64,000 bases of DNA. Source: an uncultured Bacillota bacterium (GTDB lineage Bacteria > Bacillota_I > Bacilli_A > RF39 > UBA660). Where the stretch lies: the NCBI GenBank assembly GCA_946622285.1, contig CAMOPK010000002.1, forward strand, positions 4,313 to 68,312. Direction: 5' to 3'. Both the position numbers and the translations under genes were made by a program. Of this stretch, positions 14,431-57,849 are shown one piece after another (the first letter of the stretch is position 1; every line of letters starts with the position of its first letter). The notes under the pieces are model-generated. The model was not told where the DNA came from, searched no databases, and saw only the letters and a program-made list of their open reading frames with translations.

Positions 14431-14767
14431 ATAATACTAATAAGCCATGTTCTGTAACCATAAAGGTTGGCAAACATTTATCTATCTTGCGATCCAAGTC
14501 AAAATTGAATTCTTTTAACTTAGTTCCCCTACCAAAATTTGGGTTTCTCACTCGCGGGGTTTACGTCGTCTCACTTGATTTATTTCTAAACCAAATCGTC
14601 ACTATAGCACTTTTATATCTAATATAACCATGGTTAGGTTAATTCGATGCCGTCAGTAAAAACTGCCACAGGTTATTTTTTCCCTGTGCACGAACACTAC
14701 CAACATCTCAGTTGGTGTGAGCATGGACTTTCCTCTACAAAAATTGCAGCGTTTGCCTAGTATTATT
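14431..14767 (-). ncRNA. rnpB: RNase P RNA (bacterial type B)
   Basis: The minus strand contains GAGGAAAGTCCATGCTC, GTAAACCCCGCGAGTGAGAAACCCAAATTTTGGTAGGGGAAC and ACAGAACATGGCTTA. These are near-identical to conserved B. subtilis rnpB blocks. A P1 helix forms between AATAATACTA (5') and TAGTATTATT (3'). It sits next to gpsB, as I recall for B. subtilis (from memory, not checked). Confidence 0.9.
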
Positions 14768-43790: not shown

Positions 43791-43816
43791 AAAAAAAGGA
43801 AACTTTATAGTTCCCT
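43791..43816 (-). terminator. Terminator after the desulfoferrodoxin gene
   Basis: The minus strand reads GGGAACT-ATAA-AGTTTCC followed by a T run. There is a G-U pair on the minus-strand transcript but an A-C mismatch on the plus strand. Confidence 0.6.
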
Positions 43817-43818
43817 TT

Positions 43819-44193
43819 TTAATTTATTTCTTTTACCCATAAGCCATGCTTGTTACAATATGAATAAATTTTGCCAGAAGCTTTGTTAAATTTGACTTTA
43901 GCTTCCATATTTGGTTTCAAATAAACAAATTCCTCTTTCTCATCATTTAGAAAAGCTACCCATTCAATATAATGTTCTTCTTCCATAACGTGATTTACTG
44001 TAACAATTATGTTTTCACCATCAATCTCATAACTAGGAACATGTTTTTCAAATGCAGCATCTACACTATTTGGTCTTACTACTGTCATTTTTTCACCACA
44101 GCATGTAATTCCACAGTTTTCACAATTGCAATCTTCTATTACTTTTACTAATGCTCCACATTTCAAACATTTTTTTAAAACTAAATCTCTCAT
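43819..44193 (-). CDS. dfx: Desulfoferrodoxin (superoxide reductase)
   Basis: 124 aa. N-terminal CxxC...CC centre I (CLKCG...CCGEKM). Centre II motifs EKHVP, EEEHYIEW and CNKHGLW. Confidence 0.88.
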   Translation of the reverse strand: MRDLVLKKCLKCGALVKVIEDCNCENCGITCCGEKMTVVRPNSVDAAFEKHVPSYEIDGENIIVTVNHVMEEEHYIEWVAFLNDEKEEFVYLKPNMEAKVKFNKASGKIYSYCNKHGLWVKEIN

Positions 44194-44209: not shown

Positions 44210-46306
44210 TTATTGTTCCAAATAAGATGTTTTATATGAATCTGAACCAATCGTTTCAGTTCCATGGACTATTGAATATGAAGAATCAGTTTGAACAACA
44301 TTTATTTCATTGTCAATAGCATCAGTTATTCCTTTGACAACACCATCATAGAAATCAAACGCTACAGTACTTCTAATACCATATGTTTTACCTTGAATTT
44401 CTGGAGAAACAGTACTTAAATTTCCGTCTGTATTATCTCCAATTGTTAAATTACCTTCGTTGGAAATAGCTTGTTGATAAACTCCGACTATCGTACCACC
44501 TGTTATTTTAACTGTACCATTAAGCAAATTTTGAACGGTAGCTCTTTCTAAAGTGGTAGTAGTATTTGGCACTCCTGTTGCAGTTGCGCTTAGATAAGCA
44601 TTTCCACTTATTTCTACATATCCACCTGCTATATTATATACAGCAGATCTTGTCCCTGTAGAAATTACATTTCCACCACTTATATGTAAAGAACCAGTCG
44701 CATTATTATTTATAGTCGCTTTTGTTGCTGCATTACCTGTTATAGTTCCATTATAAACTTCAAGAGTTCCGTTATTTTCAATCGTTGATGCATCCCCACT
44801 ATTACTTAAAGTATGACCTTGCAAATCAAGAGTAATAGTTTTATTGTTCGGAACTTTTACACTTTCTATGCAATCATCTGTAAGTAATACAGTTGAACCA
44901 CTAGTCGCTTGATTTATTGCTGTTTGTAATGATGTATATACTATTCCGTTTACAGATGCAACACTAGTTTGAGTCCAATGTGCAAAGATTGTTGTATCAT
45001 TTTCAAAAGTAGTACTTGGTGTTACTTCACTTCCACCTTCAGGAAGTGTATACCAACCATCAAATCTATAACCTGTTCGCGTAGCTAAAGGTAACGATCC
45101 AATAGCACTTCCGCTTTCGATTGCCCTTGTAGCTTCAGGTGAAGTCCCAGACATAGCATCAAATGTAATAGTTACACCTACCCCTAGATAAGAAATATTG
45201 TATGTTTGATTATCTATTACTTCAGTTGCACTAACAAGCATAAAATCTTCTTCCTGACTTGTAATTTTTGCAACATTATTAAATGAAGAATTCTTCCCTT
45301 TGGCAGTACCATCATAAAATGCAAAATTAGTTGTACTACTAACTCCTATTGTACTTCCTTGAATTACAGGTGATAATTTATTAGAAGCATTATCTTCTAC
45401 TCCAATAGTCATATTACCTCTATTGTCTACACCAATATAACTTTCTGAAACAATTGTACCACCGGTTATTAAAAGTGTACTACTGGCTTGATTTTGAACA
45501 GCAGCTCTTAAATTTCTTCCGGGTCCACTGGCTGATCTTAAATAAGAATTTCCAGTTATTTCAACAGTTCCTTTATCATTATATAAAGCCTGCTTACCAC
45601 CAGTAGAAGTCATCAATATTCTAACGCCGTCTACAATTAAATTTGCATTTTGATTATTGTTTATTGTGGCAGCAGCGGTTGAATTTGATGTTACTATGCC
45701 ATTTGAAATCTTTAATGTACCATTGTTAGTAATTGCTGCGTCAGCACCTAAAGCAGTTAAAGTATGATTTTGTAAATTAATTACTATATTTTTATTTTTA
45801 CTTACAATTGTATCTTCTGTTGTATTAGTCAATAATTTAATAGTTGTTAATGTATTATCGGTTGGAACTGCATTAATAGCTTCTTGAAGTGTGTCATAAA
45901 ATACTCCATCTATTTCTGCCACACCAGTTACCCAATTTGCATATAAATTAACTATTGAACCATCTATTTCTGACAAATTATTAACTAATTGATTATCTGT
46001 ATATAAAGTACCAGATCCGTTTGTTGATTTAGTCCAACCAGAAAAAGAATAATTTTCAATTTCAAAATTATTCAAATTTAAATTTTGAGCTGTACCATAA
46101 ACAAAATCTTGATTTGACATACTACCAGTTACAGTTGCACCTGCTGGAGCATTAGCATTAAAAACTACTGTATAACGTGGTTCTCGCGAATTGAGAGTTA
46201 TATATTTTGTTTTAGATTCAGTATATTTACTATATGTTATTGGCACAATTATGGCAGTCAAAAATAAAATCGATAACATTGTGCGAAGCTTAATTTTCTT
46301 TGCCAT
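44210..46306 (-). CDS. Secreted 698-aa protein with a SipW-cognate-like signal and two tandem [Flg_new repeat + parallel beta-helix] modules
   Basis: N-terminus MAKKIKLRTMLSILFLTAIIVPITYSKYTES. Flg_new segments (YTVVFNANAPAG...YSFSGWT; ITFDAMSGT...GYRFDGWY). Gly/Asn/Thr-rich beta-helix-type repeats (ITNNGTLKISNGIVT / IENNGTLEVYNGTIT). Confidence 0.6.
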   Translation of the reverse strand: MAKKIKLRTMLSILFLTAIIVPITYSKYTESKTKYITLNSREPRYTVVFNANAPAGATVTGSMSNQDFVYGTAQNLNLNNFEIENYSFSGWTKSTNGSGTLYTDNQLVNNLSEIDGSIVNLYANWVTGVAEIDGVFYDTLQEAINAVPTDNTLTTIKLLTNTTEDTIVSKNKNIVINLQNHTLTALGADAAITNNGTLKISNGIVTSNSTAAATINNNQNANLIVDGVRILMTSTGGKQALYNDKGTVEITGNSYLRSASGPGRNLRAAVQNQASSTLLITGGTIVSESYIGVDNRGNMTIGVEDNASNKLSPVIQGSTIGVSSTTNFAFYDGTAKGKNSSFNNVAKITSQEEDFMLVSATEVIDNQTYNISYLGVGVTITFDAMSGTSPEATRAIESGSAIGSLPLATRTGYRFDGWYTLPEGGSEVTPSTTFENDTTIFAHWTQTSVASVNGIVYTSLQTAINQATSGSTVLLTDDCIESVKVPNNKTITLDLQGHTLSNSGDASTIENNGTLEVYNGTITGNAATKATINNNATGSLHISGGNVISTGTRSAVYNIAGGYVEISGNAYLSATATGVPNTTTTLERATVQNLLNGTVKITGGTIVGVYQQAISNEGNLTIGDNTDGNLSTVSPEIQGKTYGIRSTVAFDFYDGVVKGITDAIDNEINVVQTDSSYSIVHGTETIGSDSYKTSYLEQ

Positions 46307-46332
46307 AAATTCACCTCTTCTCTAGGATTTAT

Positions 46333-46839
46333 TTAATCACTCAAATCAATTTGAGTAAAAATAACATCAATTTTTACAGAACTACTATCAATATCTCCAG
46401 ACCCTAAAGCTGTAGAAAATGTCAAAGTATGTTCATTAATTGCATTATTACTTCCAGCGTTAAATGATCCTGCATTTTCAAAAACAACTTTATTACTTGA
46501 AATTGTTCCAGAATTATTGCCATCAAGTAAAACTGTTACTCCTGCTGGTAAACTTGATACTTCAATTGCATAATCAACAGCAACATCAGAATTGCTAGTT
46601 ACTTTTACTATATAATTTTGATTGGTATTACCACCTGAAACCAAATCCAAGACATCAACTGCATTATCACTAGTATCAGCATATACTTCCCATTTAGCAA
46701 CATTTACATTAGCTGTCGTTTCTGGAAGTACAACAAAATATTTTGATAAGGTATTAGTAGTAAAATATGAGAGAAAAATAATAAAATAAACATAAAGAAA
46801 AATAACGTATTTCTTTTTCAATCTTCTTTTTTTCTTCAT
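46333..46839 (-). CDS. Small secreted protein with a SipW-cognate-like signal (TasA/camelysin-like candidate)
   Basis: MKKKRRLKKKYVIFLYVYFIIFLSYFTTNTLSKYFVV...VNVAKWEVY. The ORF extends to 46860 and overlaps the upstream peptidase gene. Confidence 0.5.
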   Translation of the reverse strand: MKKKRRLKKKYVIFLYVYFIIFLSYFTTNTLSKYFVVLPETTANVNVAKWEVYADTSDNAVDVLDLVSGGNTNQNYIVKVTSNSDVAVDYAIEVSSLPAGVTVLLDGNNSGTISSNKVVFENAGSFNAGSNNAINEHTLTFSTALGSGDIDSSSVKIDVIFTQIDLSD

Positions 46840-47302
46840 ATTTCTTACGCTTCCTCTCATTCTTATCTGGAATTATAGTTGTTAATACCAACCCAACTAT
46901 AAATAGTAATATCAATGTTGCTTTTCTAGAAAACAAATAACTAATAAAACCTAAAGTTTTAAATTTGTAAATCATTTTGCCAACAATTAAATCTTTTGTA
47001 ATAGGAATATCAGAAGTATTATTAGCATCTCCTTTAGTTATAACTTCATTATCATCTATTGATACTATTCTGTGAGTTATGTATTCACCATTTTTTTTAT
47101 AAGTAACTACATCATTTACTTCATACCTGCTACTTTTTTTTATTATTATTAAATCTCTAACATTTAAGTATGGTTCCATACTACCAGAACCAACTCTAAA
47201 TAGTCTAATACCAAAAAATGGAATATTTAAAACTGAAAAAAGGTTAATCAGAATAATGACTAATACACAAATTTTAAAAATCGTATATATTGTCTTTTTC
47301 AT
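46754..47302 (-). CDS. Signal peptidase I, ER/archaeal type (SipW-like), copy 2
   Basis: 182 aa with GSGSMEP, THRI and TKGDANN motifs plus a C-terminal TM anchor. Confidence 0.85.
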   Translation of the reverse strand: MKKTIYTIFKICVLVIILINLFSVLNIPFFGIRLFRVGSGSMEPYLNVRDLIIIKKSSRYEVNDVVTYKKNGEYITHRIVSIDDNEVITKGDANNTSDIPITKDLIVGKMIYKFKTLGFISYLFSRKATLILLFIVGLVLTTIIPDKNERKRKKYEEKKKIEKEIRYFSLCLFYYFSLIFYY

Positions 47303-47964
47303 TAATCATTAACCTGTTCAAAATAGAAACTTGCATCAAGTTTATATAAACTATCCATGTTCTTTCCAGCAATTGTATCAGCCTCATTATCATCAAACCA
47401 TTTCCAATCTAATGAATAGCTATCTGAATTACCTTTAGCTATATTAATGAATTCAGTTTTTAACTCATCTGCTGAAACCCAAGTTTCACTATTTCCAATT
47501 ATATACTTGTTATTTCTTCTTAAACGATATTTTAAATTAATCTTATACTCACTTTCTTCTTGTATTTTTATGTAATACTTTAAATTAAGATTAGTACTAT
47601 TATGTACAACGAAATTATATGTATTACCTACTCCTGGAGCAATTATATTGGTATACTCAAATGCTGCATTAGTAAATATTCGTAAGTTTTTGTGATATGC
47701 ATAATCTCCATCCATATCATCAACATAAACTCTTCCTGCAACATTTTCACAGCTATCACCATTGCATTTACATTTTAAGTCAATGTCAAATACATCAACA
47801 TTTCCTGTAGGTATTAGATATTTTTCATTAATATTAGCCGTAGTTGGAACTGTGTTATTTTCAATAGTTCCAAATCTTCTAAAAAATAATAGGATTAAAA
47901 TTATAATTATTAACAAAATTATAATTATCCAAAATTTCAAATTATTTTTATTTTCGTCTGTCAT
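47302..47964 (-). CDS. Membrane-anchored/secreted beta-sandwich protein (TasA-like candidate)
   Basis: 220 aa with the hydrophobic segment FWIIIILLIIIILILLFF. IAPGVGNTYNFVVHNSTNLNLKYYI and LDWKWFDD are paralogous to motifs in the 203-aa protein. Confidence 0.45.
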   Translation of the reverse strand: MTDENKNNLKFWIIIILLIIIILILLFFRRFGTIENNTVPTTANINEKYLIPTGNVDVFDIDLKCKCNGDSCENVAGRVYVDDMDGDYAYHKNLRIFTNAAFEYTNIIAPGVGNTYNFVVHNSTNLNLKYYIKIQEESEYKINLKYRLRRNNKYIIGNSETWVSADELKTEFINIAKGNSDSYSLDWKWFDDNEADTIAGKNMDSLYKLDASFYFEQVND

Positions 47965-48047
47965 AATTTTAATCCTTTCTATTTATAGCTTCCATAAAAG
48001 AAACAAATTTCTTCATTTCCTTTATGGAAGTTAAAAAACTTCCTTTT

Positions 48048-48647
48048 TTATGCTGCTCCTAATGTATATGAAGCAGTTATAGCTGCACCAGCTGGATTTA
48101 CTTGAGTACCCTTGATGCTTGCAGTAATGCTCATCTCTTCTGCTGCTTTTCCATCAGCTAAATCTTCTCCATCCTCAGTTGCAAGAGTTCCAGATGTTTC
48201 ATATGGCCACTCCCATGCTAATGGAATTGATAAAGTTCCTTTAGCTGGAATATAACCTGTAATCTTTGAACCTGAAATAGCTAATGTTGTAGAATCTTGT
48301 TTAAATACCAAGTTAGATGGTACATTTGCTAAATCTGTGAAAGTAATTTCAAATTCTACTCCTACATCACTACCACTATTATCTAAATCTAAGTTGAATG
48401 AGCCTCCTGTTCCTGGAGCAATCATGTTAGCAGTTAATCTTGAAGCATCAATTGTTGCTGGTAAAGATATCACTAAATTACCATTATTAGTGCCTTTTTT
48501 GAAATCCCACTTAGCAACTTGAGCTGTTGCAGTAGCATCAGCTAATGTTTCAGTATACTTTGCGTAAGTTGAAGCAACGTATCCACTAGTTAAAGCAACT
48601 AATAATAGTAATACAACTATAGTTAAAGATTTCTTGTTATTTTTCAC
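48048..48647 (-). CDS. Small secreted protein with a SipW-cognate-like signal; candidate major TasA/camelysin-like subunit
   Basis: MKNNKKSLTIVVLLLLVALTSGYVASTYAKYTET...AQVAKWDF. IAPGTGGSFNLDLDNSGSDVGVEFEITF and LAWEWPYE motifs. GTG 48647 after AGGTGGTGA is preferred to 48659. Confidence 0.55.
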   Translation of the reverse strand: MKNNKKSLTIVVLLLLVALTSGYVASTYAKYTETLADATATAQVAKWDFKKGTNNGNLVISLPATIDASRLTANMIAPGTGGSFNLDLDNSGSDVGVEFEITFTDLANVPSNLVFKQDSTTLAISGSKITGYIPAKGTLSIPLAWEWPYETSGTLATEDGEDLADGKAAEEMSITASIKGTQVNPAGAAITASYTLGAA

Positions 48648-48709
48648 TTTACTCACCACCTTTCATTTAAATATATGTAAAACTTCTCTAGAGAAATGTT
48701 ACATCAAAA

Positions 48710-49303
48710 TTAATCATTCTTTTTTTTCTTCATTTTCTTAAATTCTTCAAATTCTTTTAATTCCTCTTCAGTCAATGTTTTCTTTTTGTTAGTAAAAAAG
48801 TAAACTAACATACATACTATTAAAATTGACATAATCATAACTACAAAACCAAGTGGTTTTTGTATGAATAAAATTGCCGAGCCAATTTTTGCTATTTTAA
48901 ATTGATATTTACCTTCAATTTTATTTGAACACACTATACCATCATCAGCTGTATTGTTATTATCACCTTTTGTTACAAAACATTTATCGCCTTTTTCTGC
49001 AACTTCAATAATTCTATGAGTTGTAACAAAATTATCTTCTTCACGAAATGCAATAATATCATCAACTTTTAGTTCATTAGCATCAACTTCTTTTACAATA
49101 ACTAAGTCACCAATGTTGATTTTTGTTTCCATTGATCCAGATAAAACTATGAATGGTTTATATCCAAAAATACTTGGAACAGAATTTGGATTGACTTTAG
49201 TCTGAATAATAATATAAATATTGACAAGTAAAACCATGCTCAAAATAGTGATTAATACTATTTTTAAAGTTTTTAAAATTTTATTTTCATGTTTTTTAGT
49301 CAT
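48710..49303 (-). CDS. Signal peptidase I, ER/archaeal type (SipW-like), copy 1
   Basis: 197 aa with LSGSMET, THRI and TKGDNNN motifs plus a C-terminal TM anchor. Confidence 0.85.
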   Translation of the reverse strand: MTKKHENKILKTLKIVLITILSMVLLVNIYIIIQTKVNPNSVPSIFGYKPFIVLSGSMETKINIGDLVIVKEVDANELKVDDIIAFREEDNFVTTHRIIEVAEKGDKCFVTKGDNNNTADDGIVCSNKIEGKYQFKIAKIGSAILFIQKPLGFVVMIMSILIVCMLVYFFTNKKKTLTEEELKEFEEFKKMKKKKND

Positions 49304-49360: not shown

Positions 49361-49369
49361 ATTATAGCA
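49361..49369 (-). promoter_or_regulatory. Candidate extended -10 promoter element for the SipW locus
   Basis: The minus strand reads TGCTATAAT about 55 nt upstream of the peptidase ATG. Confidence 0.4.
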
Positions 49370-49510
49370 TAATTTTAGAGATTTTAAAATAAAATATGTG
49401 AATAAAAGTCAATTTTTGTCAAACATTATATTTCTATATTATTTTGTTCAAAAAAACATATAAATACTTACAAAATATGGTATAATTCAATCGATATGGA
49501 GATAAGATTT

Positions 49511-57439: not shown

Positions 57440-57530
57440 TGGCGGAGTGAGAGGGATTTGAACCCTCGCAGCAGTCTCCCGCTCTACGCCCTTAGCAGGG
57501 GCGCCTCTTCGGCCTCTTGAGTATCACTCC
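57440..57530 (-). tRNA. tRNA-Ser (anticodon GCU)
   Basis: 91 nt with a long variable arm: GGAGTGA...CTGCTAA loop...TCACTCC-G-CCA. Confidence 0.9.
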
Positions 57531-57540
57531 GACTAAATAT

Positions 57541-57569
57541 AATAATACATTATTTGTACTTTAAAGTCA
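57541..57569 (-). promoter_or_regulatory. Candidate promoter for tRNA-Ser
   Basis: Minus strand: TTGACT (57569..57564), a 17-nt spacer, then TATTAT (57546..57541), about 10 nt before the tRNA 5' end. Confidence 0.5.
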
Positions 57570-57570
57570 A

Positions 57571-57598
57571 CAAAAAAAGATACGCAAGGTATCTTTTT
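57571..57598 (-). terminator. Hairpin terminator between tRNA-Glu and tRNA-Ser
   Basis: A7-GATAC-GCAAG-GTATC-T6. Confidence 0.55.
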
Positions 57599-57609
57599 TA
57601 ATTTCAAAA

Positions 57610-57686
57610 TGGTGACCCGTACGGGATTTGAACCCATGAATGCATGCGTGAAAGGCATGTGTGTTCAACCACTTCACCAACGGGCC
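57610..57686 (-). tRNA. tRNA-Glu (anticodon UUC)
   Basis: 77 nt: GGCCCGT...CTTTCAC loop...GGTTCAAATCC...ACGGGTC-A-CCA. Confidence 0.88.
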
Positions 57687-57689
57687 AGA

Positions 57690-57766
57690 TGGCGCCTCAA
57701 GTAGGACTCGAACCTACGACCCCTTGATTAACAGTCAAGTGCTCTAACCGACTGAGCTATTGAGGC
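57690..57766 (-). tRNA. tRNA-Asn (anticodon GUU)
   Basis: 77 nt: GCCTCAA...CTGTTAA loop...GGTTCGAGTCC...TTGAGGC-G-CCA. Confidence 0.9.
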
Positions 57767-57772
57767 ATTAAA

Positions 57773-57849
<77 letters not shown>

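Follow-up and report, generated by a model that had tools for sequence, protein, structure and literature searches.

A gut-bacterial operon with a pair of SipW-class signal peptidases and an unnamed beta-sandwich family: a candidate sortase-independent surface fibre

Genes and proteins of the locus

The operon considered here lies on the minus strand at positions 44210-49303 of a window of 64,000 nucleotides (nt), which is the whole stretch of DNA analysed and belongs to contig CAMOPK010000002.1 of an uncultured Bacillota bacterium. All coordinates are positions within this window. Six co-directional open reading frames (ORFs), whose translations were read directly, make up the operon in the order pepA, 203 amino acids (aa), 220 aa, pepB, 168/175 aa and 698 aa (Table 1), the genes other than the two peptidase genes being referred to by the length of their products. 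Successive genes are separated by 50 nt, 83 nt, a 1-nt overlap, an 86-107-nt overlap and 26 nt. A preliminary description of this DNA, made from the sequence alone, had proposed a six-gene minus-strand run encoding two signal peptidases and their cargo; all six ORFs were recovered at their positions, and every peptide motif that it listed for the peptidases and the cargo is present in the translations.

Table 1. Features of the operon and its immediate flanks, in the direction of transcription.
Feature	Position	Strand	Basis
Candidate operon promoter, two overlapping sigma-70-like matches upstream of pepA	49361..49422	-	consensus matches
pepA, S26B signal peptidase I, 197 aa	48710..49303	-	TIGR02228, motifs, tree
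203-aa presumed shaft (major) subunit, GTG start	48048..48659	-	family profile, AlphaFold
7-bp GC-containing hairpin in the 83-nt spacer, directly after the stop of the 203-aa gene	48026..48043		sequence
220-aa paralogue, predicted to be membrane-anchored	47302..47964	-	homologues, hhalign, AlphaFold
pepB, second S26B signal peptidase, 182 aa	46754..47302	-	TIGR02228, motifs, tree
168/175-aa minor subunit, proposed adapter	46333..46860	-	hhalign, position in loci
698-aa proposed tip adhesin	44210..46306	-	Flg_new, cleavage site, position
Desulfoferrodoxin-like gene, 124 aa	43819..44193	-	PF01880, E 3.7e-12
Terminator-like hairpin, 12-bp stem, 4-nt loop, T-rich tail	43793..43820	-	sequence

Both peptidases score above the cutoff of the profile for archaeal/endoplasmic reticulum (ER)-type signal peptidase I (TIGR02228, cutoff 51.85 bits; 101.7 bits for pepA and 80.0 bits for pepB), in agreement with the S26B class to which the preliminary description had assigned them. 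Neither reaches the cutoff of 190 bits of the Bacillus SipW equivalog model NF046067 (115.3 and 61.6 bits, respectively), and they are therefore regarded as SipW-class enzymes rather than as SipW orthologues. S26B enzymes carry a catalytic serine and histidine in place of the Ser-Lys dyad of LepB-type peptidases, plus a conserved Asp box. The motifs SGSMET, THRI and TKGDNNN of pepA, and SGSMEP, THRI and TKGDANN of pepB, are those that we take, from published mutagenesis of SipW, to contain the catalytic residues. Among the related loci described below, SGSM, [TI]HR[IV] and KGD[AN]N are kept at both peptidase positions, and the Ser, His and Asp motifs are all present in 80 of the 93 cluster peptidases. 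Hydrophobic (transmembrane) segments are found at both the N- and the C-terminus, in pepA and pepB alike.

There is an overlap of 1 nt between the start of pepB and the stop of the 220-aa gene, and the 3' part of pepB overlaps the start of the 168/175-aa gene (46754-46860); an overlap of the latter kind is also seen in locus L008. In the public gene calls of the same contig (ENA ERZ28612940, scaffold_238, which is locus L064 of our set) pepB is not called, and its exact sequence is on record solely from Logan assemblies. Gene callers can miss genes of this type because of the overlap with the next gene, and second peptidases of the pepB type may be under-annotated.

The 203-aa protein starts with a signal peptide with the site S-T-Y-A↓K-Y (the arrow marks the predicted cleavage), followed by an N-terminal extension of ~50 residues, in which the A-K-W motif is invariant, and a beta-sandwich core. 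None of its 147 close homologues has a Pfam domain or an informative name. The residues K34, Y35, A49, W51, A81, G83, T84, G86, F88, P114, N116, W151, Y153, D163, D166 and Q186 are invariant in the 66 homologues that were aligned. In the AlphaFold monomer, with a mean predicted local distance difference test (pLDDT) value of 74.6, the sandwich covers residues 85-202, and residues 30-62 are modelled with a pLDDT <50. This segment is disordered in the monomer model yet holds the invariant K34, Y35, A49, W51 and F53. Its alternating A-x-W-x-F pattern, as read from the sequence and the model, resembles what a donor strand looks like. The strings AQVAKWDF and VNVAKWEVY are both present among the translated cargo sequences. 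The models of the 203- and 220-aa proteins each show a beta-sandwich and one helix, with cores at a pLDDT of 85-96.

Profile comparison indicates that the family of the 203-aa protein is homologous to that of the 220-aa protein (hhalign 96.9%, E 1.3e-10) and to that of the 168-aa protein (hhalign 99.0%, E 4.7e-18, over 105 columns), so that, judged by their sequences, the three proteins are paralogues belonging to one large unnamed family. An exhaustive profile search with the 203-aa family returned 5,654 representative clusters at E<=1e-3, of which 2,378 also passed E<=1e-10, counted at 50% identity and coming mostly from uncultured gut and rumen Firmicutes. The 203- and 220-aa proteins have the motifs IAPG...N-S and W-[EK]-W in common. 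An acidic loop, D-x-x-D-T-x-[DA]-G, is also conserved in both families (residues 160-172 of the 203-aa protein and 193-203 of the 220-aa protein), with D163 and D166 invariant in the former and D196 and G200 in the latter. From its sequence this loop looks like a metal-binding site, perhaps for calcium, and calcium-dependent assembly has been reported for other archaeal donor-strand fibres. In some proteins of 351-957 aa (P0312, P0325, P0342, P0348, P0351, P0357, P0365, P0366, P0371 and P0380) the domain of the 203-aa family is N-terminal and a long C-terminal extension follows; these may be fusions between a subunit and an adhesin.

In the 220-aa protein, an N-terminal transmembrane helix is followed by the strand T-G-N-V-D-V-F-D-I-D, which is conserved, and then by a variable linker that leads to a beta-sandwich. 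It has 221 close homologues, in which G54, F59, I61, P110, G111 and N114 are among the invariant residues and the linker is hypervariable. Its AlphaFold model (mean pLDDT 73.0) has a helix at residues 6-31 and two strands of low confidence (57-62 and 78-82); its core at 113-217, with a pLDDT of 86-96, is the best-modelled sandwich. No [AS]↓[KR]-Y site was found in this protein or in its aligned family, and from its sequence it looks like an uncleaved, membrane-anchored paralogue rather than cleaved cargo.

For the 175-aa ORF, the form present in public collections is the one starting at M8 (168 aa, start at 46839). It carries the site N-T-L-S↓K-Y, followed by V-A-K-W. A word search retrieved only 6 close homologues; the gene is found at the same position in most loci. 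The 698-aa protein has the site I-T-Y-S↓K-Y, then a short strand of alternating hydrophobic residues, then a duplicated module in which Flg_new is followed by ~250 aa. The two copies are 37% identical (E 1e-49), Flg_new was detected in two stretches (E 7.9e-18) with no more repeats detected, and the only PDB matches are to the InlB B-repeat. The preliminary description had suggested a beta-helix in this protein; the features detected are the two Flg_new stretches and the internal duplication. Homologues of this adhesin at the same position of other loci range from 342 to >3,001 aa and have the same cleavage site.

Cleavage sites and conservation across related loci

The signals of the three proteins with a site read STYAKYTET (203 aa), NTLSKYFVV (168 aa) and ITYSKYTES (698 aa). 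Among the 104 window ORFs of >=60 aa, this motif is found in these three operon genes and in one spurious 60-aa ORF only. The site follows the hydrophobic core and conforms to the -3/-1 rule, with the same layout as in the GTWA↓AFND of TasA, and the n-regions are lysine-rich with no twin-arginine motif. By inspection, the signal that the preliminary description had seen as shared by three proteins does have the SipW-cognate layout, with small residues at -3 and -1 and an aromatic one at +2. Its list of predicted cargo stands for the 203-, 168- and 698-aa proteins, which carry the cleavage site, but not for the 220-aa protein, which lacks the K-Y site. In the homologues the consensus T-[YFL]-[AS]↓[KR]-Y is almost invariant (Table 2), so the K-Y motif, whose conservation in orthologues had been put forward as a check, is indeed conserved. 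All 50 Firmicute major subunits read [TS]-[YF]-A↓[KR]-Y. The pilin-like proteins have A-K-W at a fixed 14-15 residues after the site; in the adhesins its place is taken by a strand x-I-x-L-x-I, directly before the first Flg_new domain.

Table 2. Residues around the predicted cleavage site in proteins of Firmicute loci (number of sequences).
Class	-3	-2	-1	+1	+2
Major subunits (n=50)	T 49	Y/F 50	A 50	K/R 50	Y 50
Minor subunits (n=32)	T 28	L/F 29	S 25, A 7	K/R 32	Y 29, F 3
Adhesins (n=6)	T 4, A 2	Y/F/L	S 5, G 1	K 6	Y 6

The set of related loci comprised 61 from named genomes and others from metagenomes, with ORFs classified by means of profiles. Gene neighbourhood, the conservation of which had also been proposed as a check, is well kept: in 33 of the 37 Firmicute loci with adequate flanks the order is peptidase, 203-family gene, 220-family gene, 0-2 genes and peptidase. 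Loci of the clade to which the window belongs have a complete order that closes with a 168-family gene and a large Flg_new protein. In a neighbour-joining tree of the peptidases, all 39 upstream peptidases (including pepA) form one clade with zero downstream members, and pepB is placed in a 28-member clade composed solely of downstream peptidases. Since upstream and downstream enzymes belong to separate clades, the duplication is ancient and has been maintained; on these sequences, pepA and pepB are ancient paralogues with intact catalytic motifs, and the two-peptidase layout noticed in the preliminary description is both real and old. A different arrangement is seen in loci L026-L054 ('Lapin' rabbit-gut Bacilli and Clostridia), where a peptidase, a major subunit (GTYARY), an anchor and a minor subunit (YT[LF]SRY) are followed by a gap of ~500 nt and a second peptidase; the second peptidases of these loci belong to a separate 15-member clade. 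No plasmid-borne copies of the cluster were found in cultured organisms.

Twelve loci from rumen and gut Candidatus Saccharibacteria (L012-L020 and L022-L024) contain a four-gene module of 203-like, 220-like, 168-like and adhesin genes. No peptidase was found within 10 kb of these modules, the profile of the 93 cluster peptidases giving one weak match (E 0.003, in L022). Their sites read V-Y-A↓K-Y, [CV]-V-A↓K-M and [AT]-x-A↓K-Y, the adhesins reading A/T-x-A. Position -1 is A in each of the three classes, a shift towards the generic A-x-A is seen at -3 and -2, and both the K at +1 and the Y or M at +2 are invariant. The shift of the sites in loci lacking a peptidase implies that the Firmicute T-aromatic-[AS] signature tracks the dedicated peptidases. 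The invariance of K-Y even where no cluster peptidase is present implies that these residues serve more than peptidase recognition, most simply assembly. In the tree of the 220-aa family the Saccharibacteria form a monophyletic clade nested inside a rumen-Bacilli clade. Their loci have a G+C content of 43-46% (versus 27-28%), and in 11 of the 12 the module occupies one fixed site beside rplU, between rplU and a pair of M50 and Rce1-like proteases. The nested monophyly, the distinct G+C content and the fixed site argue for an old horizontal acquisition and against a binning error, and the data suggest that the transfer across phyla was old and that the cleavage sites were re-adapted to A-x-A. 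The M50 and Rce1-like proteases were considered as processing enzymes and rejected; they are conserved in 11 of the 12 loci but look like housekeeping synteny at a single insertion site.

The metagenome-assembled genome RUG11890 has two clusters, namely L008, in which pepB is present and the upstream end is cut by the contig, and L025, which has no peptidase. The sites of L025 nevertheless keep the form T-x-[AS]↓K-Y, implying that they are processed in trans. In two of 63 related loci, L001 (4736-6998) and L005 (3827-6088), a polytopic S26 peptidase of 379-393 aa followed by a DUF5305 protein, i.e. a pair resembling TafD/TafG, lies beside the cluster. This pair, which is not present in the window, hints at an evolutionary connection to the haloarchaeal tafi system discussed below.

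Assembly model, alternatives and known systems

We propose that the operon encodes a sortase-independent surface fibre, built from the unannotated beta-sandwich family and equipped with its own pair of SipW-class peptidases, a reading that we consider probable, if only by a little. The assembly model follows the 'exchange and lock' scheme proposed for BsaA of Clostridium perfringens, in which the tethered precursor accepts the strand of the growing oligomer before SipW cleavage (PMC11580942), as this is the simplest scheme that uses all parts of the operon. After Sec export, the precursors would remain tethered to the membrane via their signal peptides. The freed N-terminal strand of the growing fibre would insert into the sandwich of a tethered precursor, which would be cleaved afterwards; the cleavage would expose a new N-terminus starting with K-Y, and the extension behind it would act as the donor strand for the next tethered subunit. 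As the adhesin appears to have a donor strand only and no family sandwich, it would be incorporated first and become the tip. The 168-aa protein would be the adapter between the adhesin and the 203-aa shaft. The 220-aa protein, which could accept a strand but would never be cleaved, would come last, ending growth and anchoring the fibre in the membrane. Based on gene order and on the differences at -1 and -2, pepA would serve the shaft subunit (A at -1, Y/F at -2) and pepB the tip subunits (mostly S at -1, L/F at -2).

Several observations weigh against this proposal. The Foldseek searches gave no match to a pilin or to a TasA-type protein, the best ones being generic sandwich and jelly-roll folds with TM-scores of 0.2-0.46, although fold searches are known to fail with monomer models of donor-strand subunits (PMC9245690). 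As shown by the Saccharibacteria loci and L025, the module can do without peptidases encoded in the cluster, and the conserved N-terminal strand of the 220-aa protein itself is poorly explained by the model. The status of the 203-aa protein as the 'major' subunit is presumed from gene position and analogy. The A/S split at -1 is a trend, with A in 7 of 32 minor subunits and in all Ruminococcus-type minor subunits.

The operon could instead be a dedicated secretion and processing module, in which the adhesin and the accessory proteins form a small stoichiometric complex on the 220-aa anchor and no fibre is made. The lack of a pilin fold match suits such a module, the anchor could merely hold the complex at the membrane, and the family fusions of 350-957 aa resemble surface proteins more than pilins. 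However, the three paralogues have in common a long and conserved N-terminal extension, disordered in the monomer and placed at a fixed distance from the site, the N-terminal strand of the adhesin differs, and K-Y is conserved even without peptidases, all of which is difficult to account for unless strands interact between molecules; the set of parts moreover matches that of known donor-strand fibres. We regard a module of this kind as possible but doubtful.

Unlikely, in our judgement, is that the operon represents a highly diverged member of the TasA/BsaA/camelysin group, i.e. a TasA-homologous biofilm-matrix fibre with SipW orthologues. The peptidases fail the SipW equivalog cutoff, and the small proteins, whose motifs the preliminary description had seen as compatible with a TasA-like sandwich, gave no support in any search; a lack of such matches had been named there as evidence against a TasA type. 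No window protein matched Peptidase_M73 (PF12389) at E<=0.1, nor did any of 66 members of the 203-aa family and 54 of the 220-aa family, scanned singly at E<=1. With TIGR04088 and the TapA model (TIGR04087) no window protein was significant, and only 2 of 66 and 7 of 66 members gave matches, at noise level (E 0.019-0.03). None of the three small proteins matched a PDB sequence, and the 203-family profile retrieved no TasA, AbpA or other fibre protein from the PDB sequences at E<=10. Aligned with hhalign to TasA (the TasA sequence being validated against 8AUR and 5OF1), the same profile gave a probability of 1.6%. In Foldseek, the 203-aa model had no match at E<=1e-3, its matches being to MSP, cohesin and, weakly, chaperone-usher pilins; the 220-aa model matched jelly-roll-like C-CPE, collagen-binding, GOLD and CBM domains within the range of TM-scores given above, and TasA was absent from the top 50 matches of both monomer models. 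Membership in the TasA/camelysin family was rejected on these Pfam, NCBIfam, PDB, hhalign and Foldseek results, and the functional analogy was kept.

That pepA and pepB do no more than housekeeping signal-peptide cleavage in a small-genome Firmicute, their position being meaningless, is very improbable: among the ORFs of the 64-kb window there is no further S26 gene, LepB-type signal peptidases included, but the arrangement is kept in 33 of the 37 loci, from Bacilli as well as Clostridia, each of the two positions has its own ancient clade, the cleavage-site residues co-vary with the presence or absence of a peptidase, one locus has a third peptidase and two have the extra TafD/TafG-like pair.

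Other pilus classes were also considered. No hidden Markov model match to DUF1102 was found in 120 family members. A sortase pilus was rejected, as the cluster proteins have no C-terminal LPXTG with a transmembrane segment and the cluster has no sortase; the three LP[SK]TG strings that occur internally in minor subunits do not represent sorting signals. A type IV pilus was rejected as well, the site lying after the hydrophobic core and the cluster containing no PilD- or PilB-like genes.

Among known systems, the tapA-sipW-tasA operon of Bacillus subtilis is one in which the N-terminal extension of TasA is the donor strand and TapA supplies the first strand (PMC9674648, PMC10151520, PMC9245690). 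It shares with the present locus a dedicated ER/archaeal-type peptidase beside its substrates, T at -3, A at -1 and an aromatic residue at +2. It differs in having one peptidase instead of two, and A-F instead of K-Y at +1/+2; the present subunits have no detectable similarity to TasA in sequence, profile or fold searches, and a membrane-anchored paralogue and a Flg_new adhesin are found only here. In the sipW-bsaA-bsaB-bsaC operon of C. perfringens, a large cargo lies beside SipW, BsaC being a 70 kDa VWA protein (PMC11580942). Both operons combine a SipW-class enzyme, two paralogous small subunits and one large secreted protein, but BsaA and BsaB are remote TasA homologues, the peptidase is single and the large protein is of the VWA type, as opposed to Flg_new. 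BsaA locks via an N-E-K isopeptide, whereas an equivalent triad has not been established for the present cluster, and the export of BsaC depends on type IV pilus proteins.

Haloarchaeal tafi follow a comparable plan. The S26 peptidase TafD was shown genetically to process TafA and has the DUF5305 partner TafG (PMC11821415), and the predicted order is tip TafC, adapter TafE, core TafA and transmembrane-containing anchor TafF, joined by donor strands (PMC11821415). Like tafi, and like the taf-like clusters of Thermococcales and Archaeoglobus, the present operon has a dedicated S26 peptidase, two to three small paralogues and a larger tip protein. Tafi, on the other hand, are archaeal and, in haloarchaea, exported by the twin-arginine translocation (Tat) pathway, they have one peptidase and not two paralogues, and their subunits belong to the TafA or DUF1102 families, neither of which was detected here. 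TafD is moreover a four-transmembrane, two-domain enzyme partnered with DUF5305. Pyrobaculum AbpA/AbpB form a jelly-roll donor-strand fibre processed by a generic signal peptidase, the large AbpB being proposed as primer and adhesin, and AbpB or TapA act as strand-donating initiators (PMC9245690). Their lack of a dedicated enzyme parallels the peptidase-less Saccharibacteria loci, but AbpA is linked to TasA by HHpred (97%), a link not seen here, and the operon content differs.

Chaperone-usher pili resemble the proposed fibre in having a tip adhesin, adapter, rod and terminator made of paralogous immunoglobulin-like subunits with N-terminal extensions. The PapG pilin domain, FimA and CupB6 were among the weak Foldseek matches of the 203-aa model (E 0.02-0.3, not significant). 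Unlike in these pili, there is here no chaperone, usher or outer membrane, and the strand polarity would be reversed, the adhesin acting as donor. The sortase-pilus islands of Streptococcus pyogenes also contain a signal-peptidase-family gene, SipA/LepA, in the pilus operon, where it is needed for polymerisation. SipA/LepA is a LepB-type (P-type) protein which has lost its catalytic residues and works with sortases on LPXTG pilins, whereas both enzymes of the present operon are S26B with intact catalytic motifs, accompanied by neither a sortase nor an LPXTG motif.

The principle of a dedicated signal peptidase combined with donor-strand subunits is therefore already known from TapA-SipW-TasA, SipW-BsaABC and tafi. 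New here are the subunit family, the conserved pair of paralogous and catalytically intact peptidases, the Flg_new tip protein, and the distribution in gut and rumen Firmicutes and Saccharibacteria. A literature search found, in the searchable part of the literature, no prior description of the subunit family or of a two-peptidase pilus cluster. The novelty claimed in the preliminary description is accordingly kept for the two-peptidase layout; it does not extend to large cargo beside SipW, for which BsaC is a precedent (PMC11580942), nor to a fibre plan with a dedicated tip, since tip, adapter, core and anchor with a dedicated peptidase have been published for tafi (PMC11821415).

If the proposed fibre is real, unannotated proteins in their thousands would find an explanation as subunits of an adhesive fibre that needs no sortase, and the principle of dedicated peptidase and donor strand would reach a third, sequence-unrelated family beyond TasA/BsaA and tafi. 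The paralogues with their distinguishable -2/-1 preferences, together with the peptidase-less derivative that has drifted to A-x-A, would constitute a natural experiment on peptidase-substrate specificity; with this natural control, the two-peptidase arrangement makes both specificity and cleavage-coupled assembly directly testable. There would also be a non-type-IV adhesive appendage in Saccharibacteria, for whose biology host attachment is central. The family merits a Pfam or NCBIfam model. A wider and more speculative proposal, which we put forward tentatively and think rather improbable as a whole, is that these are widespread unrecognised pili of monoderm gut and rumen bacteria and of Saccharibacteria of the candidate phyla radiation. 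In such pili signal-peptide cleavage would itself be the polymerisation step, pepB (tip complex) and pepA (shaft) would be gatekeepers that order assembly, and K-Y would dock or covalently lock into the next subunit; the module would have moved from rumen Bacilli to episymbiotic Saccharibacteria, where the general signal peptidase would have taken over its processing and where it may mediate host attachment.

Transcription signals and surroundings of the operon

The candidate promoter upstream of pepA consists of the matches TTGACA-18-CATATT (49422-49393) and TTTAAA-16-TATAAT with a TG extension (49388-49361), the number of promoter-like matches in the region being not above the shuffled expectation. 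The hairpin after the 203-aa gene sits in the longest intergenic spacer of the operon, and on the coding (minus) strand no U-run comes after its stem. It might be an mRNA stabiliser or an attenuator, a role that is unproven, and by analogy with other pilus operons it could tune the stoichiometry of the shaft subunit.

Downstream, the desulfoferrodoxin-like gene begins 16 nt after the adhesin gene with no terminator between them, and a terminator-like hairpin comes only after it. This hairpin is the sole one of its kind on the minus strand between 43000 and 50000 and is likely the end of the transcription unit. The desulfoferrodoxin-like gene, which did not recur in the related loci examined, is probably co-transcribed with the operon and is not considered a functional part of the system. 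The window as a whole has a G+C content of ~29% and contains a class-B RNase P RNA (272 bits, 14436-14764), the class and the low G+C fitting a low-GC Firmicute and class B also suiting a source of the Bacilli type. It also carries eight tRNA genes, four of which are clustered at 57443-57849.

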